Origin: Dubosiella newyorkensis
GTDB taxonomy: Bacteria; Bacillota_I; Bacilli_A; Erysipelotrichales; Erysipelotrichaceae
DNA: 6,599 nt
Direction: 5' to 3'
Assembly: GCF_001945605.1 (NCBI RefSeq)
Contig: NZ_MPKA01000040.1
Span: 1-6,599 of the forward strand
The position numbers were made by a program, and so were the translations under genes. Below, one piece after another: positions 1-6,599 of this stretch. The notes beneath the pieces were generated by a model. The model was not told the origin of the DNA, searched no databases, and saw only the letters and a list, made by a program, of their open reading frames with translations. The first letter of the stretch is position 1. The number at the start of each line of letters is the position of its first letter.

Positions 1-1
1 G

Positions 2-70
2 AACAAAATCGTCAAAAATGCCAACGGGAAAAATGTGGCGAAATTCATAAAAGAAAGAAAAGGCGTCTAA
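2..70 (+). CDS. Possible 3' end of a convergent gene entering from the left edge (partial; ...NKIVKNANGKNVAKFIKERKGV*)
   Basis: Plus frame 2 is open from the window edge to TAA at 68-70. That stop lies inside the 59-100 hairpin, the usual geometry for a gene ending at a shared terminator. Only 22 codons are visible. The other two plus frames are also open for 16-36 codons, so neither frame nor product can be established. Confidence 0.3.
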   Translation, partial: NKIVKNANGKNVAKFIKERKGV

Positions 71-100
71 ACCCTTTAAATAAAGGAGATAGGCGCCTTT
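46..100 (-). terminator. Rho-independent terminator closing the minus-strand two-gene operon (probably bidirectional)
   Basis: The minus strand reads AAAGGCGCCTA-tct-CCTTT-attt-AAAGG-gtt-TAGACGCCTTT, followed by TCTTTCTTTTAT. The outer stem pairs 59-69 with 90-100 and has one C.A mismatch on the minus strand (G.U on the plus strand). The inner stem is 5 bp (73-77 with 82-86). The T-rich tail on the minus strand is at 46-58. On the plus strand the hairpin follows an A-tract and is trailed by only TTT, so it is stronger for minus-strand transcripts. Confidence 0.7.
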
Positions 101-297
101 CGCACTGTTAAAACTGTAAAAGATGGGATAATAACACAGTTTATGGAATTTCAAGCATAAAATTCTAATATTATAGGAAGAATCATTCACTTTTCAGTCA
201 AATCGCTTTAAAAAGTTATAGAAAACTGATATGAATTCTGATCTTTCCTAGTCAAGTAACTATGATACCATAATTTCCCATAAATCGTTTCTTTTTT

Positions 298-3200
298 TTA
301 ATGTTTGAGTTTGAACTTCTTTAAAGAATCTGTATTGATCTTGTTTTTTATAAGAGAAATTTTCATCTGAAAAATTGGAAAAGCATTTCTTTGATCCTCT
401 GTGATCATCTTTGCCGTTTGGTTCAACATCAATCCGTCTCCATCTAAATCGGTAGGAAGAATGATCAACTCTTTTTCCTTTACTTCTTGGATCGTAAAGC
501 AAATCTTGTTTTTGAATTCTTCATTGATCAATAAATTCGCTTGATACATTTCTTCCTTTTGTTTTTTGACCTCTAATAAAGTGTTTTGGATATCGTAATT
601 CTTGATTTTCCATCCATTTCTTCGAAAATATTCCACCTGAACGGAATCGACATTGAATTGTTTTCGCTTCAAATTATCTTTTCCATACAACATTGGAATA
701 TCTCTTAGAAACAAAAAGGTTTCTTCCTGTTTTGAAAACAAGCTCTTTGTCTGAATAGATCCTCTCACTCGATAAGGTCTAAAAGATTCTAAGTGTTCAA
801 ATCTACAGATTAGGGTTTTTGCGTTCGCTTCAATAGTCTTTGTACTTAACGTATTGTTGCCTGGATCTAAAAGCTGAACAACGATCACTTCATTGTTTTT
901 TATATCCTTCAACAACTCGAACTGAATGAAAACGTCCCTTTTTTCATGGTTCGTTTGAATTTGGATCGATCTTTGGTCGACTTCCGGACGATATTGAATG
1001 CGAATCATATTTTCCTTGTTCTGTTCTTTATAAAAAAATAAATTTAGATGTGAATACTCTTTATTGTTTTTTAAAGCTGCCGTTTCGATATACATATGCT
1101 TCTTCGTCCGCTGGATCTTTGGAACCATTCGAAATTGACCATCATCGCTCATCAAAACGACCCGATCAAAACCAATTCCATCAAAATACAATTTTGAAAA
1201 AGACTTGAATTCATCCGAATCGATCGAATGTTCGAATCCTCTCCATGCAAGATCATCAATCCGATAGATCGCTTCAGGTGGGGTCAAAACAAGCCAAAAC
1301 GTTTGTTTTGAATTCGGATAATACCATTCGATTTCGTACACATTCTTTTTCGAAACATCTTTATGAATGATCTTTCCATCGATCACATACGAATCCTCGA
1401 ACAAAGAAATCGAAAGTCTAGGCTCATAAAATACTTTTCTATGCGCTACTTTCCTTTTATCTTGAAAAAATTCTAAAACATTTAATCCTTCTTCAAACGA
1501 ATCAAGCAGCTCTTGAATGTTTTCATAACAATGCCCATTTCGCAAATAGAAACCATCTTCTTCAGGCTCGATCCGATAAATTGAACGATAAATCGGATAC
1601 GATGTTAGATAATCCTTGATATGAACATTCGAAAACTGATTTCCATACAGTTGAATAACGACCTTTTTTCTTTTCTCTAAACAAATCGTTCCTAGATCAT
1701 ACATTTCAAACTCTTGATCGACTTGGACACTCTCATCCTCTTGCAGATCAACACCAGCCACAATAAATTGACCTTCTAAAGAATCAGTGTTAGAGACATT
1801 CTTTCCAAACTCGTCAAAATACAAACGAGAATGGTAAAGACTCTCCCCACTACTAAAAAGAAGATGCTCATCCGTTTTGATTTGAAGTTTTAATCTTCCA
1901 AAAGGATCTTCCAATTCAATTTCGAAAGCTCGGATTCGATAGTTGTTGTCATGTCGAACGACCTTTAATCGATCTACCGTTTGAATCATTTCGTTATTTT
2001 GGAAGAATTCGATTCTTAACGACTTTGAATATCGTTCTGGATCAAAATCAAAATCCGGAATCCGCAAACAAATTTGATTACCATCCAATATAAAGTCAAA
2101 ATCAATGCTCTTCTCTTTACTATCATTTCGATCTTTAGTTTCTGTTTTCTCTCTATGATTTACTTTCTTTCCTCCAAGAATGCTTTGGATCTTTTCTTGG
2201 ATCTTATGATTCGATCCTTTGCCTGTCTTTACACTATGGATCCACTTAAAAAGTTCATAAACATAAAGAACAAGCTCATCCAGTTTGCTTTCATCTTCAA
2301 AATAACTCTTGAACGCGATATTCAAATGCGCTTCTGGCCCTCTTCTAAGCAAAGCCTGTTTTAGTTTTGGCTTTGAAACTTTCGCGAGATCATAATTAAA
2401 CTCATATTTAAAGATCGAATCCAAATACGGAATGAAAAGATCCCAATATGGAAACGGAACAAACGCTTGCCTTAAAACATTGTCGATCTTTCGCCACGAC
2501 TTTTTCTCTACAAAAGCATCGATGATCTTTCTTAAGCGGGTTTCTACATTGATCACATCATAAGTGGACTGTTCAAAAATAAGTGTCTGCTCTACCTTAT
2601 CCCAAAATGAACTGTCATAACATTCCATTCCGATCAAGCACAGAGCTAAAAATACCCAGTCTTGATGAATGATCTTAGAAGACTTATTCTTTAAAGCGTT
2701 TTGAGCTACAGAATAAATTTCTTTCACATAAGAATCGTTATCGATCAAATATGTAAGAGCGATCCCGATTGGAATATTTTTACGCACTTCTTGAATCAAG
2801 ATTTGAACGATCTTGTCAAGATCGTATTCTAAAATCGTCGATTGATCAAAACGACGGATTTGGTTCATAAAAAGGATCGGATCGATCGGTATTACATTCC
2901 TATAAATTTGCGGAACTCTTTTCTCGTGCGTTCCAAGTCGGCCTGCGATTACAATACCTTCGATAATTTCCTCTTTTTCTTGAATCGGATCAATTTTATA
3001 GAATTGGATTTGTTGTTGAAACAAAGAAATTCTGATCATCGGAAAGGATTGTTCATGGACTCCCAAATAACCCCTTAAAATTGTTCCGTCAACACTCTCT
3101 TCCTCTTCTTCAGAAGTTGACTCATTCACGGTTAGAAAAACGATTTGAAAAGCTATAGAACTGCGCTTGATCGGAACACAAGGTTCATGTGTTTCTAAAT

Positions 3201-3567
3201 AACCATCGATCAAAACACCTTCTACAACGCTCTCTTCTTCTTTTTTGATTTTGTTTTGTAGAGTTGTGAATTGTGAAAATAAAACTGGTCGCCTTATCGT
3301 GAGATTGTTTGGAACGTGATAATCCAAATAGCCCGAAAGAACAGTTCCTTCTAGGATTTCTTCGTTTGACGTATTATGTACTTCGTTTTTTAATTCAACC
3401 CTTTGAATCGTTCGTTTAGGAAAAAAGATGATGAGTTGCCTTGGTTGCTCAATTTTTAGTTGTTCTTCTTTTGGTTGTTCTTCATTTAATTTTTCTCTTT
3501 TGAAAAATGAGAAAAATTTTAAGAAAAGTTCTTTCCACTTCATATTTCTAACAACTCTTCCAGCCAT
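298..3567 (-). CDS. Large (1089 aa) hypothetical protein: N-terminal tandem ~43-aa repeats, helical middle, beta-rich C-terminal region; no recognisable catalytic motif
   Basis: An uninterrupted 1089-codon ORF in stop-rich AT-rich DNA, on the same strand as and overlapping the upstream helicase-like gene, with TAA stop at 298-300. There are two candidate starts. ATG 3567 gives the longest ORF, a 28-nt overlap and no obvious SD. ATG 3543 (Met9) forms ATGA with the upstream TGA at 3540-3542 and has GGAAGAG 11 nt upstream. By eye there is no GxxxxGK[ST], DExx helicase motif, HxK(x)4D, HNH or Cys/His cluster. Layout: EEQPK-like mini-repeat (aa ~29-43), 4.5 repeats (aa 42-244), W/F/Y-rich helical-looking region (aa ~245-465), charged linker (aa ~466-487), then alternating hydrophobic/polar beta-like sequence to aa 1089. 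Confidence 0.9.
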   Translation of the reverse strand: MAGRVVRNMKWKELFLKFFSFFKREKLNEEQPKEEQLKIEQPRQLIIFFPKRTIQRVELKNEVHNTSNEEILEGTVLSGYLDYHVPNNLTIRRPVLFSQFTTLQNKIKKEEESVVEGVLIDGYLETHEPCVPIKRSSIAFQIVFLTVNESTSEEEEESVDGTILRGYLGVHEQSFPMIRISLFQQQIQFYKIDPIQEKEEIIEGIVIAGRLGTHEKRVPQIYRNVIPIDPILFMNQIRRFDQSTILEYDLDKIVQILIQEVRKNIPIGIALTYLIDNDSYVKEIYSVAQNALKNKSSKIIHQDWVFLALCLIGMECYDSSFWDKVEQTLIFEQSTYDVINVETRLRKIIDAFVEKKSWRKIDNVLRQAFVPFPYWDLFIPYLDSIFKYEFNYDLAKVSKPKLKQALLRRGPEAHLNIAFKSYFEDESKLDELVLYVYELFKWIHSVKTGKGSNHKIQEKIQSILGGKKVNHREKTETKDRNDSKEKSIDFDFILDGNQICLRIPDFDFDPERYSKSLRIEFFQNNEMIQTVDRLKVVRHDNNYRIRAFEIELEDPFGRLKLQIKTDEHLLFSSGESLYHSRLYFDEFGKNVSNTDSLEGQFIVAGVDLQEDESVQVDQEFEMYDLGTICLEKRKKVVIQLYGNQFSNVHIKDYLTSYPIYRSIYRIEPEEDGFYLRNGHCYENIQELLDSFEEGLNVLEFFQDKRKVAHRKVFYEPRLSISLFEDSYVIDGKIIHKDVSKKNVYEIEWYYPNSKQTFWLVLTPPEAIYRIDDLAWRGFEHSIDSDEFKSFSKLYFDGIGFDRVVLMSDDGQFRMVPKIQRTKKHMYIETAALKNNKEYSHLNLFFYKEQNKENMIRIQYRPEVDQRSIQIQTNHEKRDVFIQFELLKDIKNNEVIVVQLLDPGNNTLSTKTIEANAKTLICRFEHLESFRPYRVRGSIQTKSLFSKQEETFLFLRDIPMLYGKDNLKRKQFNVDSVQVEYFRRNGWKIKNYDIQNTLLEVKKQKEEMYQANLLINEEFKNKICFTIQEVKEKELIILPTDLDGDGLMLNQTAKMITEDQRNAFPIFQMKISLIKNKINTDSLKKFKLKH
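2836..3444 (-). repeat. Protein-level tandem repeat array (about 4.5 copies of a ~43-44 aa unit) in the N-terminal region of the 1089-aa protein
   Basis: Aligned units are EEILEGTVLSGYLDYHVPNNLTIRRPVLF..., ESVVEGVLIDGYLETHEPCVPIKRSSIAF..., ESVDGTILRGYLGVHEQSFPMIRISLF... and EEIIEGIVIAGRLGTHEKRVPQIYRNVIP.... The E/D-G anchors fall at aa 73, 116, 160 and 203, a spacing of 43, 44 and 43 aa. Acidic linkers (EEES, SEEEEES, EKEE) separate the units. A half unit at aa 42-67 (FPKRTIQRVELKNEVHNTSNEE) matches the second half of unit 2 (VPIKRSSIAFQIVFLTVNESTSEE). The units are diverged at the DNA level, so the duplication is old. Confidence 0.8.
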
Positions 3568-6419
3568 TGTTTGGCGTACTTTCTTTTTAAGTGCTGGTGT
3601 TCTCTGCGATTTCTATAAGTTCTCAAACACCTGTAGCAGCTGCTTTCTTCTTCACAACAATCTTGCGAAACAATATCAAGAGCACAATTTAAAACGAGAG
3701 AAAGTGTATTCTCATCCGCTAGTCTTTGCACATGACCCGCTCCTCCTGGAACTTGATCAAAAAGAATAAACTCAAATTCTTGAAACGAGTTTGTCACCAA
3801 AAGTCCATTGATATCGTTTCTTTCGATTTGTAGGCTTTGACTTAAAGCGTTCAAGAGTCCATAAAGCAAAGACAAACACCAATCTCTATTTTTAGCATGT
3901 TCGCTGTTGATCTTGAGACGTACGACATCGGTTTTGAATACGTAGCCTAACGCTGTATGCTGTAGCGTCGTGTTCTCGCATTCAAAACCTCGAGGATCTC
4001 GATGCTTTTTTCTTTCCTTGATCGTATTCGAGCGCATCGTCTGCATTCGTTTCGTATAGCCACAGCTTTTACAATAATAAAAATGTCCTTCATTGATCAT
4101 TGCAAGCCTGTCTTCTTGGATTGCGGTCAGGCGGATCTTGTTAGCCAACAATACTTTTTCTTTAAATGGGAGTCCTTTTCCTAAATAACGGATTTCTCCT
4201 GCGTACGACTTGATCGGTTTGATGTTTTTCGAACGTTTTTCATTGGAAGCCACAAAACCAAATCGAGGCTCCAAAAAGAATAGATCCGTCTTTTTGTACG
4301 GCTTGAAACATGTTGGACAGAGTGACCCTTCTTCAAAAGGTTCTAAGGATACTTGCGTATCATGGCATTCTTCACATGTGTAGTAATAAGTCTTTGTCAG
4401 CTCTTTGCCTGTCTTTTTTGGAAGCTCGATATAACGAGAAACAAACTTCTTTTCATCGGCGATTACTTCTGAATCCGGCGCGTATTCGCTTATACCAATC
4501 AAAAGGTCTCTTTGCAGATCCACACTATGATCTTGAGGCACTTCCATTCGAATGAGATCGACAGGAAATCCATATTTTGGAATAATGGCAAATTTAGATA
4601 AGTCTTCCAAAATATTTTTCTTATTCAAATTGTCGATTTGGTTTTTAAAATAATCAGCTTGCCTAAAATTCTCGGATTGGGAGGCTTTGTCTTTTGCCGC
4701 TTCCAATGTATTGACGAGTTCGCTTGTTTCTTGAATATATTTTGATAAAACACTTTCGTCTTTCTTTAAAGCGTCGATCCATTTGCTTTGTTTGAACGCT
4801 TCTAAATTCGTGTTTTTCAGCACCCATTGATCAATATATTCAACTAAATCTTTTGGATTGCTGTTTATATAGTCAATAAAAGGTTCAAGATGGTCATCAT
4901 AAACAAAAGAAATATTTCGAAAATGGTCTGGATGCTTTCTAAAGTAATGGGCAAATGCACTTGCCAATATATGGCGAAGAGCGATCTTTTCATTTTCGAC
5001 CTTGAATTGTGGTGGATCGATCTTTCCGGAAATCATATCTTTTGGTCTTTGATAATAGTAATAATCGTGCGATTCGTTTTGGCAATACGTCATGATCAAG
5101 GCGCTCGCGTCTTTGCTTCGGCCTGCGCGCCCTGCTCTTTGGATATAATTGGCAGGCGTAGGTGGGATATTTCGACAAAACACGTATTCAAGACTTCCTA
5201 GATCGACTCCCATTTCAAAGGTCGTCGAGCAGCTAAGTACATTGATCTTTTTATTTTTAAAATCGATTTGGTATTGTTTGGCTTTATCGTTTTTCAACTG
5301 CGCTGTATGCTCTTGCGCGATTACGTTTTCGATCTTTTTTGTTTTATAGTTATTTCGGTAATAATGGTTTGCGAACACGTGATCAACATCGCATCGATGA
5401 AGCGTTCCAGGACATTCATGTTCTGGACACATTCCATGAATGTTGTATAGAGTCACTCTTTTACATTTGTCACATTGATACCAAGTCAACTTGGTATAAG
5501 GAATCACTTTAAATTTTTCAACCGGAATATGGTAAGAAAACACTTGGCTCGCTTCTGTTTCTTTCAAGATGCCTAGATTGCACATGAGCGTAAACAGCTT
5601 TTCCATAATATCGATGATTTCTTCTCTTTTAGCGTTTGGATAGAGCTTTTGTAAATAGGCGCTCGTCTTATTCTCTCTTTGGGCTTGTACTGGCAAAAAG
5701 CTTTCTACATATCGGTATTCATCCTTGTGGTTGTTGTACTCTCGCTTTTCTATGATCGTCTGCTCACGATTTCGATAAGGAAAGGCGTTGATCTTTTCTT
5801 CATCGGATAATTCAGCCACTTGATAATCAATAATGCATTTATGGCGCATTTGATCGATTAAAATATTAAAAAGAGTGATCGTTTCTTCTACATTTAATTG
5901 AAACGCGGAATGAAGCTCGGCTTCATTTTCATAAAGGATTTGAGGATTCAACTCAAATTGGTAGCCATACAAACCAAGGCTTTGTGCTGAATAGCGTCCA
6001 CTGGTATACATAAGATCCTGCAAAACGCTGATCCAGGCTTCGCTTTGCTCATGCTTTTGGTTTTTTGAAAAAAGTCCTTCTCTACGGATTTGGTTTGTTA
6101 GCTGCATCGCTAACGAGCGAATGTTCACGCCTTGTGTTTCTTTGATCGCATCCCATACGAGTCGTTTTCGTAAAAAGAGTTCATGGTTGTTGTTGAACTG
6201 CATTGAAAAGAAGCTGGCTTGTTGTCTTGAGTCAGAGAAAGTCAAAAGCTGTTTTACATTCTTTTTTGGAGTTGTTTCTATTGAAGTTTTATCAAAAAGA
6301 CTCTTTTTTACAGGTCTTTGCGTTTTTACTTCTACTTGTTTTTCGTCGATCGATTCATAAAAGATTTCGGAAAGTACGGCTGTTCCTGTGTCTTTATTGA
6401 GATTGAACGATGAAATCAT
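3540..6419 (-). CDS. SF2 helicase C-terminal half (RecA2 lobe only) fused to a DUF1998/MrfA-type Zn-binding domain; lacks the RecA1 ATPase lobe
   Basis: A 959-codon ORF with ATG at 6417-6419 and TGA at 3540-3542. RecA2 motifs: LLTFSDSRQQA (aa 58-68), EHTAQL (aa 370-375), VLSCSTTFEMGVDLG (motif V, aa 394-408) and YIQRAGRAGR (motif VI, aa 425-434; 5118-5141 reads caa aga gca ggg cgc gca ggc cga on the minus strand). DUF1998-type C-terminus: IIPKYGFPVD (aa 612-621), CxxC pairs, and CCEEESSCYRCLRTYRNRREHQHL (aa 921-944). No Walker A (GxGK[ST]) or DExH/DEAD motif occurs anywhere, and only ~57 aa precede the first RecA2 strand. Confidence 0.9.
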   Translation of the reverse strand: MISSFNLNKDTGTAVLSEIFYESIDEKQVEVKTQRPVKKSLFDKTSIETTPKKNVKQLLTFSDSRQQASFFSMQFNNNHELFLRKRLVWDAIKETQGVNIRSLAMQLTNQIRREGLFSKNQKHEQSEAWISVLQDLMYTSGRYSAQSLGLYGYQFELNPQILYENEAELHSAFQLNVEETITLFNILIDQMRHKCIIDYQVAELSDEEKINAFPYRNREQTIIEKREYNNHKDEYRYVESFLPVQAQRENKTSAYLQKLYPNAKREEIIDIMEKLFTLMCNLGILKETEASQVFSYHIPVEKFKVIPYTKLTWYQCDKCKRVTLYNIHGMCPEHECPGTLHRCDVDHVFANHYYRNNYKTKKIENVIAQEHTAQLKNDKAKQYQIDFKNKKINVLSCSTTFEMGVDLGSLEYVFCRNIPPTPANYIQRAGRAGRSKDASALIMTYCQNESHDYYYYQRPKDMISGKIDPPQFKVENEKIALRHILASAFAHYFRKHPDHFRNISFVYDDHLEPFIDYINSNPKDLVEYIDQWVLKNTNLEAFKQSKWIDALKKDESVLSKYIQETSELVNTLEAAKDKASQSENFRQADYFKNQIDNLNKKNILEDLSKFAIIPKYGFPVDLIRMEVPQDHSVDLQRDLLIGISEYAPDSEVIADEKKFVSRYIELPKKTGKELTKTYYYTCEECHDTQVSLEPFEEGSLCPTCFKPYKKTDLFFLEPRFGFVASNEKRSKNIKPIKSYAGEIRYLGKGLPFKEKVLLANKIRLTAIQEDRLAMINEGHFYYCKSCGYTKRMQTMRSNTIKERKKHRDPRGFECENTTLQHTALGYVFKTDVVRLKINSEHAKNRDWCLSLLYGLLNALSQSLQIERNDINGLLVTNSFQEFEFILFDQVPGGAGHVQRLADENTLSLVLNCALDIVSQDCCEEESSCYRCLRTYRNRREHQHLKRKYAKQWLEELLEI
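3585..4592 (-). other. DUF1998 / MrfA-type Zn-binding C-terminal region
   Basis: The region begins near IIPKYGFPVDLIRMEV (aa 612-627). It contains CEEC...CPTC (aa 682-704, 4308-4376) and CKSC...H...C (aa 783-814, 3978-4073). The family-typical tail follows: FDQVPGGAGH (aa 887-896) and CCEEESSCYRCL-x-x-Y-x-N (aa 921-937; the Cys cluster aa 921-931 is at 3627-3659). Confidence 0.75.
5010..6251 (-). other. RecA2 (helicase C-terminal) lobe with a ~290-aa insertion between the FSDSRQ strand and motifs IV-VI
   Basis: FSDSRQ is at 6222-6239, motif V at 5196-5240 and motif VI at 5118-5141. The stretch between aa ~75 and ~365 is a helical-looking insertion that ends in a Cys-rich knuckle. Confidence 0.75.
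5412..5474 (-). other. Cys4-type zinc-ribbon-like knuckle inserted in the RecA2 lobe
   Basis: WYQCDKCKRVTLYNIHGMCPEHECPGTLHRC (aa 313-343) has a CxxC, 12 intervening residues, then CxxxxC. A further His and Cys follow (H341, C343). Confidence 0.6.
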
Positions 6420-6479
6420 GCCATTGTCGCTATGCTGTTGACAATATGGACAATCATTTAAATTATTCTTTCTATATAG

Positions 6480-6508
6480 ATTATCCTAAATAATCCGCCT
6501 TTGCTCAA
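6480..6508 (-). promoter_or_regulatory. Sigma-A-like promoter for the two-gene operon
   Basis: The minus strand reads TTGAGC (6508-6503), a 17-nt spacer, then GATAAT (6485-6480). That is 4/6 and 5/6 matches to TTGACA/TATAAT at optimal spacing. The predicted 5' UTR to ATG 6419 is ~50 nt. This is prediction from sequence only. Confidence 0.5.
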
Positions 6509-6526
6509 ATGACTTGTTCAAATCAT
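6501..6526. repeat. Tandem imperfect 13-bp direct repeat overlapping the -35 element (possible operator)
   Basis: On the plus strand TTGCTCAAATGAC (6501-6513) is immediately followed by TTGTTCAAATCAT (6514-6526), with 10/13 identical. On the minus strand this reads ATGATTTGAACAA GTCATTTGAGCAA, and the proximal copy contains the -35 TTGAGC. Confidence 0.35.
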
Positions 6527-6599
6527 TTAACACTTAAACAATAAAGCGTTTCAATAATAAAGATAGATAGAAAGAAGTGTATCTCTATGAATCCAGCTT

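Follow-up and report, generated by a model that had tools for sequence, protein, structure and literature searches.

A probable decayed Druantia III-B-like gene pair in Dubosiella newyorkensis, with its gene order inverted and a partner from an unannotated family

Two long, overlapping open reading frames (ORFs) on a 6,599-nucleotide stretch of the Dubosiella newyorkensis genome (contig NZ_MPKA01000040.1, positions 1 to 6,599; hereafter the window) raise the question of whether they form a defence system of a new kind or belong to one already named. Both lie co-oriented on the minus strand, at 3540-6419 (959 amino acids (aa), ORF1) and 298-3567 (1089 aa, ORF2 or gene 2), as an earlier reading made without database searches (the sequence-only reading) had described. 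That reading took them for a self-contained cassette of a DUF1998 helicase half and an orphan repeat protein, perhaps a distinct system, perhaps a diverged or decayed variant of Druantia. We find that it is both diverged and decayed. The locus carries the decayed remains of a two-gene system like Druantia III-B, in which the genes stand in inverted order and the partner comes from an unannotated family. We put at about 0.72 the probability that the window of this mouse gut bacterium holds, in inactivated form, a Druantia-type candidate anti-phage module of two genes, one for a DruE helicase and one for a large partner. The system is not categorically new, and its partner family has neither an annotation nor a detectable relation to DruH.

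A DruE-family helicase and its linked partner family

The protein encoded by ORF1 matches the PADLOC profile DruE1 with an E-value (E) of 2.7e-102 over profile positions 718-1674 of 1776, and is therefore the C-terminal part of a DruE and no stand-alone half helicase. Every other DruE model matches it too, and the scores of DrmA, DpdF/J and BrxH are poorer than that of DruE1 by 50 to 90 orders of magnitude. ORF1 aligns without gaps and at 98% identity to residues 574-1532 of the 1532-aa protein WP_304750049.1, and in relatives with a 95%-identical ORF2 a full-length 1532-aa helicase lies directly upstream of the partner. The intact allele (locus L007) matches DruE1 at 2.5e-156 and DruE3 at 1.2e-152, and the placing of this helicase among those of the DUF1998/Druantia kind by the sequence-only reading was correct. 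Pfam assigns to the intact allele all three domains of a DruE-family helicase, a DEAD domain (RecA1; DEAD/ResIII is also named) at aa 89-278, Helicase_C and MZB, whereas the window has only Helicase_C and MZB. Since the protein stops 27 aa past MZB with nothing more C-terminal, it is a helicase without a C-terminal nuclease domain. The best PDB sequence match of the intact helicase is 9tu7_Y (2108 aa, 'DEAD/DEAH box helicase'; 5.8e-73), which we take to be DruE because its entry series neighbours 9tud, named DruH; the match to YprA/MrfA (6znp) is at 1.6e-20. Weak Pfam matches to UVR, FAST_1 and DUF6865 in the window proteins were treated as noise.

The partner had been taken for an orphan but belongs to a large family whose genes consistently adjoin those of compact DruE helicases. 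When 1.84 billion representative proteins were scanned exhaustively with gene 2 in HMMER (cut-off E <= 1e-3), 97 remote homologues emerged, 36 of them at <= 1e-10. These are 900-1430 aa long and 22-29% identical, and their aligned parts fall mainly in residues 232-650 and 710-1060. Word-index protein searches with gene 2 and with the family alignment returned only the 95%-identical cluster and were uninformative.

We looked up seven of the remote homologues and left P0055 out of the adjacency count, its contig being too short to show a neighbour. All six with readable flanks directly adjoin a helicase that is 1541-1603 aa long and has DEAD, Helicase_C and MZB domains; the partner is downstream of the helicase, as in the window, for P0002, P0003, P0004 and P0009 and upstream for P0017 and P0040. 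From the helicase side, an alignment of seven compact helicases searched against GTDB species genomes gave 80 loci. At 65 of these the helicase start is met or overlapped by the end of an ORF, mostly of 900-1160 aa, and most of the others are cut by an upstream contig end. With gene 2 as seed, jackhmmer reached convergence having taken in 61 of the 65 upstream ORFs and no E. coli-type DruH; the four outside the family are three actinobacterial ORFs and one archaeal. The co-occurrence that the sequence-only reading had proposed to check is thus found from both directions (6/6 readable contexts, 61/65 helicase-side loci). The helicase comes first in the window and in its nearest relatives (L004-L010, L018, L019), the partner first in those more distant, so that across the family the partner is mostly upstream, in the DruH position, and is downstream in the Dubosiella clade.

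The 80 loci come from taxa that include Lachnospiraceae, Ruminococcus, Erysipelotrichaceae, Acholeplasma and other Mycoplasmatota, Bacteroidota, Spirochaetota, Nocardiopsis, Glycomyces and one archaeal metagenome-assembled genome (MAG), and the gene-2 family itself stands beside a compact DruE in Bacillota, Mycoplasmatota, Bacteroidota, Spirochaetota and one gut phage. The partner family is fast-evolving, with 21-26% identity between loci whose helicases are 38-51% identical. The helicase and partner identities to Dubosiella follow the same rank order, which fits a co-inherited pair with a much faster-evolving partner. Gene 2 is strictly paired with the helicase and is its cognate partner.

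Two variations on the pair were observed. In a subset of loci (L031, L033, L037, L039, L040, L044, L045, L046, L050, L053, L054, L057, L058, L061, L063, L095) the helicase is longer (~1670-1725 aa) and an ORF of ~550-620 aa lies directly downstream, which may be a third component; the ~570-aa third gene of some relatives matched no PDB sequence. Additionally, a Bacilli MAG carries a second, partial gene-2-family ORF of 449 aa (L046 12663-14012, E 3e-21) ~2.5 kb downstream of a complete pair.

Partner architecture and relation to DruH

The likely start of gene 2 is the ATG at 3543, because this ATG shares an overlapping ATGA with the druE stop, has been chosen as the start in other records, and is where the N-termini of homologues align (MKWKELFLKFF against MWNLIKRLFERYF, MNLFKIIRNTF, MFKFLAELIQSIF and MFRWLKELLKRF). 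The protein would then have 1081 aa, and the 1089 aa of the sequence-only reading is the length of the longest ORF. The ATGA overlap suggests translational coupling of the two genes.

An AlphaFold2 model built with 36 homologues gives the partner an unstructured N-terminal extension, an all-helical domain and an array of immunoglobulin (Ig)-like beta-sandwich domains (Table 1). The internal repeats of which the protein had been thought to consist are real, four of ~44 aa each; they occupy ~16% of its length, and the remainder holds the helical domain and the Ig-like array. BLASTP self-comparison left these N-terminal repeats undetected and a motif search confirmed them. They are confined to Dubosiella proteins, the motif being absent from 13 homologues, and three of the four other partners read in the helicase-first clade (P0003, P0004, P0009) have long acidic low-complexity linkers where Dubosiella has repeats. 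Modelled alone, the helical domain reaches a predicted local distance difference test score (pLDDT) of 83.8 and a predicted template modelling score (pTM) of 0.82. Foldseek searches with the beta array returned generic multi-Ig arrays (Robo2, CD109, alpha-2-macroglobulin) from PDB and generic Big-1/FN3 phage tail proteins, with no specific baseplate-J signal, from BFVD.

The N-termini of the family vary. A basic amphipathic N-terminus (MKWKELFLKFF-like; window 3502-3543, gene 2 aa 9-22) is common to gene 2, P0002, P0003, P0004 and P0009; in P0003, P0004 and P0009 the acidic linker comes after it, and in helicase-first-clade partners this short segment may be a tether or docking motif. A subfamily of ~1065 aa (P0018, P0023, P0028, P0031, P0032) matches the PADLOC candidate PDC-S48 over residues ~20-120 (best E 1.6e-6), and the NCBIfam model of the YmfL-family regulator matches nine family members (7.5e-5). 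Neither match applies to gene 2: they belong to another subfamily, in the case of PDC-S48 to its N-terminal segment. Gene 2 has no PDC-S48-like segment, and the N-terminal module of the family is therefore exchangeable.

How does the partner relate to DruH? E. coli DruH is the full-length YjiT, of 1096 aa, adjoining a 2114-aa DruE; the family to which it belongs has the Pfam entries PF27205 and PF27201 and is called 'STY4851/ECs_5259 family' by NCBI. Cryo-electron microscopy of DruH describes an alpha-helical or globular N-terminal domain, a series of Ig-like domains and a C-terminal domain that helps form a pocket for single-stranded DNA (ssDNA) and ATP (10.64898/2026.05.12.722862; 10.64898/2026.05.12.724681). 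As modelled, the partner, with its helical domain and Ig-like array, resembles DruH as published in description. Profile scans for DruH and known families covered gene 2, 36 family members and 10 further partner ORFs. Gene 2 has no Pfam and no PADLOC match and corresponds to no known Druantia, DISARM or MrfB component, as the sequence-only reading had stated, and for gene 2 and its relatives no DruH, DruA-D or DruF/G/L/M model was matched in PADLOC, Pfam or NCBIfam. As a control, yjiT of E. coli K-12, the N-terminal half of DruH, matches PADLOC DruH3 at 3.7e-241, with 11 DruH3 models matched. Only the DruE of the pair can therefore be assigned confidently to a named system; DruH is unmatched.

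Two side observations concern DruH itself. In E. coli K-12 MG1655 (L015 6415-10856) yjiT corresponds to the N-terminal half of DruH, and yjiV carries a pseudogene annotation; set against the full-length DruH and DruE pair that another E. coli strain has at this position, yjiT-yjiV is a decayed Druantia III beside mcrBC. The ORFs upstream of compact DruE in L092, L094, L096 and L098 (Nocardiopsis, Glycomyces) and L088 (the archaeal MAG) match no gene-2 family, E. coli DruH or PADLOC DruH3 model. Sequence thus sorts the proteins in the DruH position into three or more groups with no link between them.

A number of results weigh against the reading of the window as an inactivated Druantia-type module. 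The partner matches no PADLOC DruH3 model, neither PF27205 nor PF27201, and no DruH family of NCBIfam; hhalign puts the probability of a match between the gene-2 family and an alignment of 22 DruH sequences at 0.1%, and the family profile does not match the PDB DruH chain 9tud_A. The helical domain finds no match among PDB structures (best E 0.18), and the gene-2 model lacks a helical C-terminal domain comparable to the one at the ssDNA/ATP pocket of E. coli DruH, so that the mechanism of the partner may differ. No nuclease is recognisable in the helicase or the partner. The Dubosiella locus adjoins IS66 and a polysaccharide cluster, with no clear defence island, and its likeness to III-B is one of build, in a compact, nuclease-free 1532-aa helicase.

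The strongest alternative is a partner that is unrelated to DruH and has replaced it, making a new Druantia type in which, for example, the Ig-like array would recognise phage structural proteins and the helical domain would serve as effector or regulator. We regard this as possible but doubtful. It accords with the absence of DruH similarity in any hidden Markov model (HMM) or profile-profile test, with the helical domain lacking a solved-structure match and the model lacking a DruH-like helical C-terminal domain, and with N-terminal modules that differ between subfamilies (repeats, acidic linkers, the PDC-S48/YmfL-like segment). However, the partner is in the DruH size class (~900-1150 aa), occupies the same position relative to DruE in most genomes, and matches the published gross plan of DruH in its helical domain and Ig-like array. 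DruH is reported to evolve much faster than DruE and under positive selection (10.64898/2026.05.12.724681), and a loss of sequence signal between DruH and the partner is therefore expected. There is also a weak collinear hhalign match between the gene-2 family and actinobacterial partner ORFs (E 0.002, probability 14%, 547 columns). A related proposal, which we likewise offer only tentatively, is that the gene-2 family represents a DruE partner of its own, whether because it has no kinship with DruH or because it has diverged past recognition; its conserved ~235-aa helical domain would be a new fold, and the family would define an unrecognised Druantia type. If true, this type would occur widely in gut Bacillota, Mycoplasmatota, Bacteroidota and Spirochaetota, as well as in at least one phage, and would have two gene orders and swappable N-terminal modules.

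Genomic context and disruption of the helicase gene

Related loci connect the pair to defence and to mobile DNA. In several of them the neighbours include type I restriction-modification, GmrSD, HNH, a phospholipase D (PLD)-helicase, a toxin-antitoxin pair and an AlbA_2 (Schlafen-type) ATPase. In Ruminococcus phage NatCom_28274, a 59-kb gut phage (PV036439.1; L101 8953-16376), the pair lies directly after the endolysin gene; its 916-aa partner and 1558-aa helicase are both annotated as hypothetical, and the helicase is 39% identical over its full length. The defence-gene neighbourhoods, the phage-borne copy and the patchy distribution indirectly suggest that the pair may have an anti-phage role.

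The pair could instead be a DNA-repair or housekeeping module of the MrfA/YprA type, which we consider very improbable. The helicase does share the YprA architecture, as its match to PDB 6znp indicates, and metabolic and polysaccharide genes neighbour the Dubosiella locus. But the DruE match is far stronger than that to YprA, no MrfB-like exonuclease is present, and a patchy spread across phyla, defence-gene neighbours, a phage-borne copy and repeated inactivation of the gene within one species do not fit such a role.

This inactivation is seen in the window itself, where druE is cut after codon 556 by an IS630-family element that has entered at a TA. Homology to the intact allele is lost at ~6474, and the insertion sequence (IS) that follows runs on into the N-terminus of a helix-turn-helix (HTH) transposase on locus L002 (1-266); the other IS end, with the DDE part of the transposase, is on locus L017 (1420-2069). 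The missing 5' part of druE was found on JBGNFS010000024.1, another small contig of the same D. newyorkensis assembly, where it ends ...HQTGDT and gives way to foreign IS-derived sequence whose opposite strand codes for the C-terminal portion of a DDE transposase. This transposase shares 65.6% identity with annotated IS630-like ISBs2 transposases, and the two IS ends are imperfect inverted repeats with 16/22 positions matching (counted by eye on the alignment). A TA flanks each IS end and the intact allele has a single TA at the same spot; TA duplication is typical of IS630/Tc1-mariner elements. The ORF1 protein is on record exactly in D. newyorkensis (WP_076340488.1/OLU47797.1), on contigs of ~6.6-7 kb that end just upstream of ORF1 at a divergent HTH gene. 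That assemblies break at this ISBs2-like element suggests that it is multi-copy in D. newyorkensis. Plasmid searches with gene 2 and with the IS flank gave no matches.

What remains is the 3' 63% of druE, and positions 6420-6474 are a coding remnant that is still in the druE frame but has no start codon. RecA1 is absent from the remnant and is encoded by the 5' part outside the window. The Walker A and Walker B motifs of superfamily 2 (SF2) helicases sit in RecA1. With RecA1 and its ATPase motifs missing, the remnant cannot work as a motor, and the module in the window strain is most likely dead. The helicase half of the sequence-only reading does contain Helicase_C with QRAGRAGR and MZB/DUF1998, but it is an IS630-cut remnant of druE and not a native gene. 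The claim of a self-contained module falls with it, as ORF1 is only a part of a 1532-aa gene and its flank is an IS end. The proposed promoter fares no better: the IS end at 6475-6599 accounts for the promoter-like element, and we found 12 promoter-like hexamers against 19 expected in shuffled sequence.

A second, independent lesion occurs in the same species. On metagenomic contigs, CAA is changed to TAA at codon 1341 of the helicase (Q1341*; L004 9426-9428 and L005 6402-6404), which corresponds to window ~4115, where CAA is intact. This allele is on L004, L006, L008 and L005, the last standing for 18 further similar places, and it splits the MZB domain off as an ORF of 168-186 aa. Intact helicase alleles are also on record (WP_304750049.1, WP_304805497.1). 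With intact alleles, a nonsense allele and an IS-broken copy in one species, it is the intact ones, and not the window copy, that suit cloning.

Could the locus still work as a split system, its helicase halves expressed separately, the C-terminal one from a promoter in the IS end, and reassembling like DISARM DrmA/DrmB? A -35/-10-like pair (TTGAGC, 17 nt, GATAAT) in the IS end at 6508-6480 does read toward the remnant, an in-frame ATG stands at 6419, and sporadic splits of YprA-like helicases have been reported (10.1101/2025.09.15.676423). However, the cut falls between RecA1 and RecA2, inside the motor, rather than at the OB-CON-DUF1998 boundary as in DISARM, and such promoter-like sites are not commoner than in shuffled sequence. 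The independent Q1341* allele suggests decay rather than functional redesign, and we give a working split helicase very little chance. The ORF coordinates and overlap and the downstream hairpin would conform to a native, self-contained cassette, in which a DUF1998 helicase half that is short by nature has a promoter to itself and works with a 1089-aa orphan. This reading is refuted by the IS end in the upstream flank, the missing 573 residues on another contig of the same assembly, the intact 1532-aa alleles in the same species and the many homologues of the partner.

The other boundary of the pair stands as the sequence-only reading had it, with a terminator-like element after gene 2. The hairpin there has a folding energy of -18.7 kcal/mol (z -3.68) that was reached in 0/200 shuffles, and it is followed by a run of T. 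Further downstream begins a sugar-transferase gene (Bac_transf), which heads a polysaccharide-biosynthesis cluster downstream of the partner gene and is preceded by a promoter-like CTGAAA, 16 nt, TATAAT at 170-197 on the minus strand.

Table 1. Features of the window, with strand and supporting detail
Feature	Position	Strand	Detail
3' remnant of druE	3540..6474	-	callable ORF 3540-6419, 959 aa
Helicase_C (RecA2), including motif VI QRAGRAGR	5115..5336	-	Pfam PF00271, E 7.1e-12, ORF1 aa 362-435
MZB/DUF1998 zinc-binding domain	3624..3863	-	Pfam PF09369, E 5.3e-11, ORF1 aa 853-932
Partner gene (gene 2/ORF2), likely extent	298..3543	-	1081 aa; longest ORF would start at 3567 (1089 aa)
N-terminal extension of partner	residues 1-238	-	unstructured in model, pLDDT below 40, not conserved in family
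Four ~44-aa repeats, E-G-x-V-[LI]-x-G-[YR]-L-x-x-H	2848..3372 (aa 66-240)	-	motif positions 74, 117, 161, 204
All-alpha globular domain (model)	2143..2850 (aa ~240-475)	-	most conserved part of family
Ig/FN3-like beta-sandwich array (model)	343..2100 (aa ~490-1075, ~600 aa)	-	all-beta model, pLDDT 80-95
IS630-family (ISBs2-like) element, terminal 125 nt	6475..6599		one inverted-repeat end (from 6475), antisense to helicase gene
IS transposase start, first codons	ATG 6587-6589	+	within IS end
TA target-site dinucleotide	6473..6474		flanks IS; TA also at other junction (locus L017)
Terminator-like hairpin and U-run	hairpin 58-101, U-run 45-57	-	directly before next gene
Sugar-transferase gene (Bac_transf), start only	1..48	-	gene order on loci L004, L005; unrelated to module

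Proposed mechanism and comparison with known systems

Druantia is among the commoner defence systems, its mechanism is only now being resolved, and almost all work has been done on E. coli type III-A. From the published Druantia III work we infer that in intact alleles of the present system the helicase would load where 3' ssDNA is exposed in phage DNA that is replicating or has been injected. By this analogy it would then unwind phage DNA 3'-to-5', and the partner would be a sensor or regulator that the helicase needs, possibly an ssDNA-binding subunit, so that the two together would block phage DNA replication. They would do so with no recognisable nuclease in either protein, as in the Mycobacterium smegmatis system.

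The locus is a pointer to many compact DruE systems in gut anaerobes. Their partner is missed by PADLOC 2.0, Pfam and NCBIfam, and annotation tools that rely on these models would therefore fail to report the systems as complete. Defence annotation would gain from a definition of the partner family, for which the alignment, the conserved core at aa 240-650 and the strict adjacency to DruE provide a basis.

One of the closest known systems is Druantia III-B. It consists of a compact DruE without PLD domains and a single partner (10.1101/2025.09.15.676423, Bell et al. 2025; 10.64898/2026.05.13.724758), is cited by Himpich et al. 2026, and forms a clade in the YprA phylogeny with GIH50614.1 as representative (10.1101/2025.09.15.676423). 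The present system shares with it a two-gene module, a DruE-family YprA-like helicase with a short end past MZB and no PLD or Vsr nuclease domain, and a single ~1000-aa partner without annotated domains, which in most relatives precedes the helicase. It differs in that the helicase precedes the partner in the window and its nearest relatives, the partner is unmatched to DruH, and the window copy is broken by an IS. Of the features of type III in general, two adjacent and co-oriented genes for a DruE and one large partner are present, and the order DruH then DruE is not found in the window and its nearest relatives. Types I (DruA-D), II (DruM/F/G) and IV (DruF/L) have no PADLOC match to gene 2 or its family, and the intact loci have no further conserved genes.

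Type III-A, known from E. coli DruH/YjiT and DruE (structures 9TU7-9TUD, 28XY and others), has in common with the intact Dubosiella pair the DruE helicase core, seen in the DruE3 and 9tu7_Y matches, and a partner whose plan is a helical domain and then Ig-like domains, with lengths of 1081 and 1096 aa. However, the DruE of ~2000-2100 aa with two C-terminal PLD-like domains that marks III-A is not found here: E. coli DruE has ~400 extra residues past MZB (PLD domains per the cited papers) that are absent. The gene order is also inverted, and the partner has neither sequence similarity to DruH nor a helical C-terminal domain in its model.

In M. smegmatis, a DruH of 1132 aa and a DruE of 1667 aa block phage DNA circularisation and replication, with both proteins needed and DruH alone reported to be toxic (PMC13316683). 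This pair (MSMEG_1253/1254) shares with ours a compact DruE with DEAD, Helicase_C and DUF1998 and no nuclease, and overlapping genes (PMC13316683). It differs in its DruH then DruE order, and the sampled Nocardiopsis and Glycomyces partners are outside the gene-2 family by jackhmmer, with only the weak hhalign hint between them.

DISARM (DrmA, the DUF1998 protein DrmB, DrmC and a methylase) also has a YprA-like helicase with DUF1998, and the Q1341* allele superficially mimics a DrmA/DrmB-like split. Its DrmA matches are weak (E 1e-13 to 1e-21) against 1e-156 for DruE, and no DrmC, methylase, DrmD or DrmE was found among the locus neighbours. MrfAB/YprAB has the SF2 core and the MZB domain in common with the present helicase, which is ~2x as long (1532 against ~750 aa) and has many zinc-module insertions; the partner has no nuclease match that would make it an MrfB-type 3'-5' exonuclease, and the context here is defence-like and mobile. 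Because it has the same gross plan as DruH, yet no detectable sequence similarity to it and no DruH-type C-terminal domain, the gene-2 family is a natural comparison for what a DruE partner must provide.

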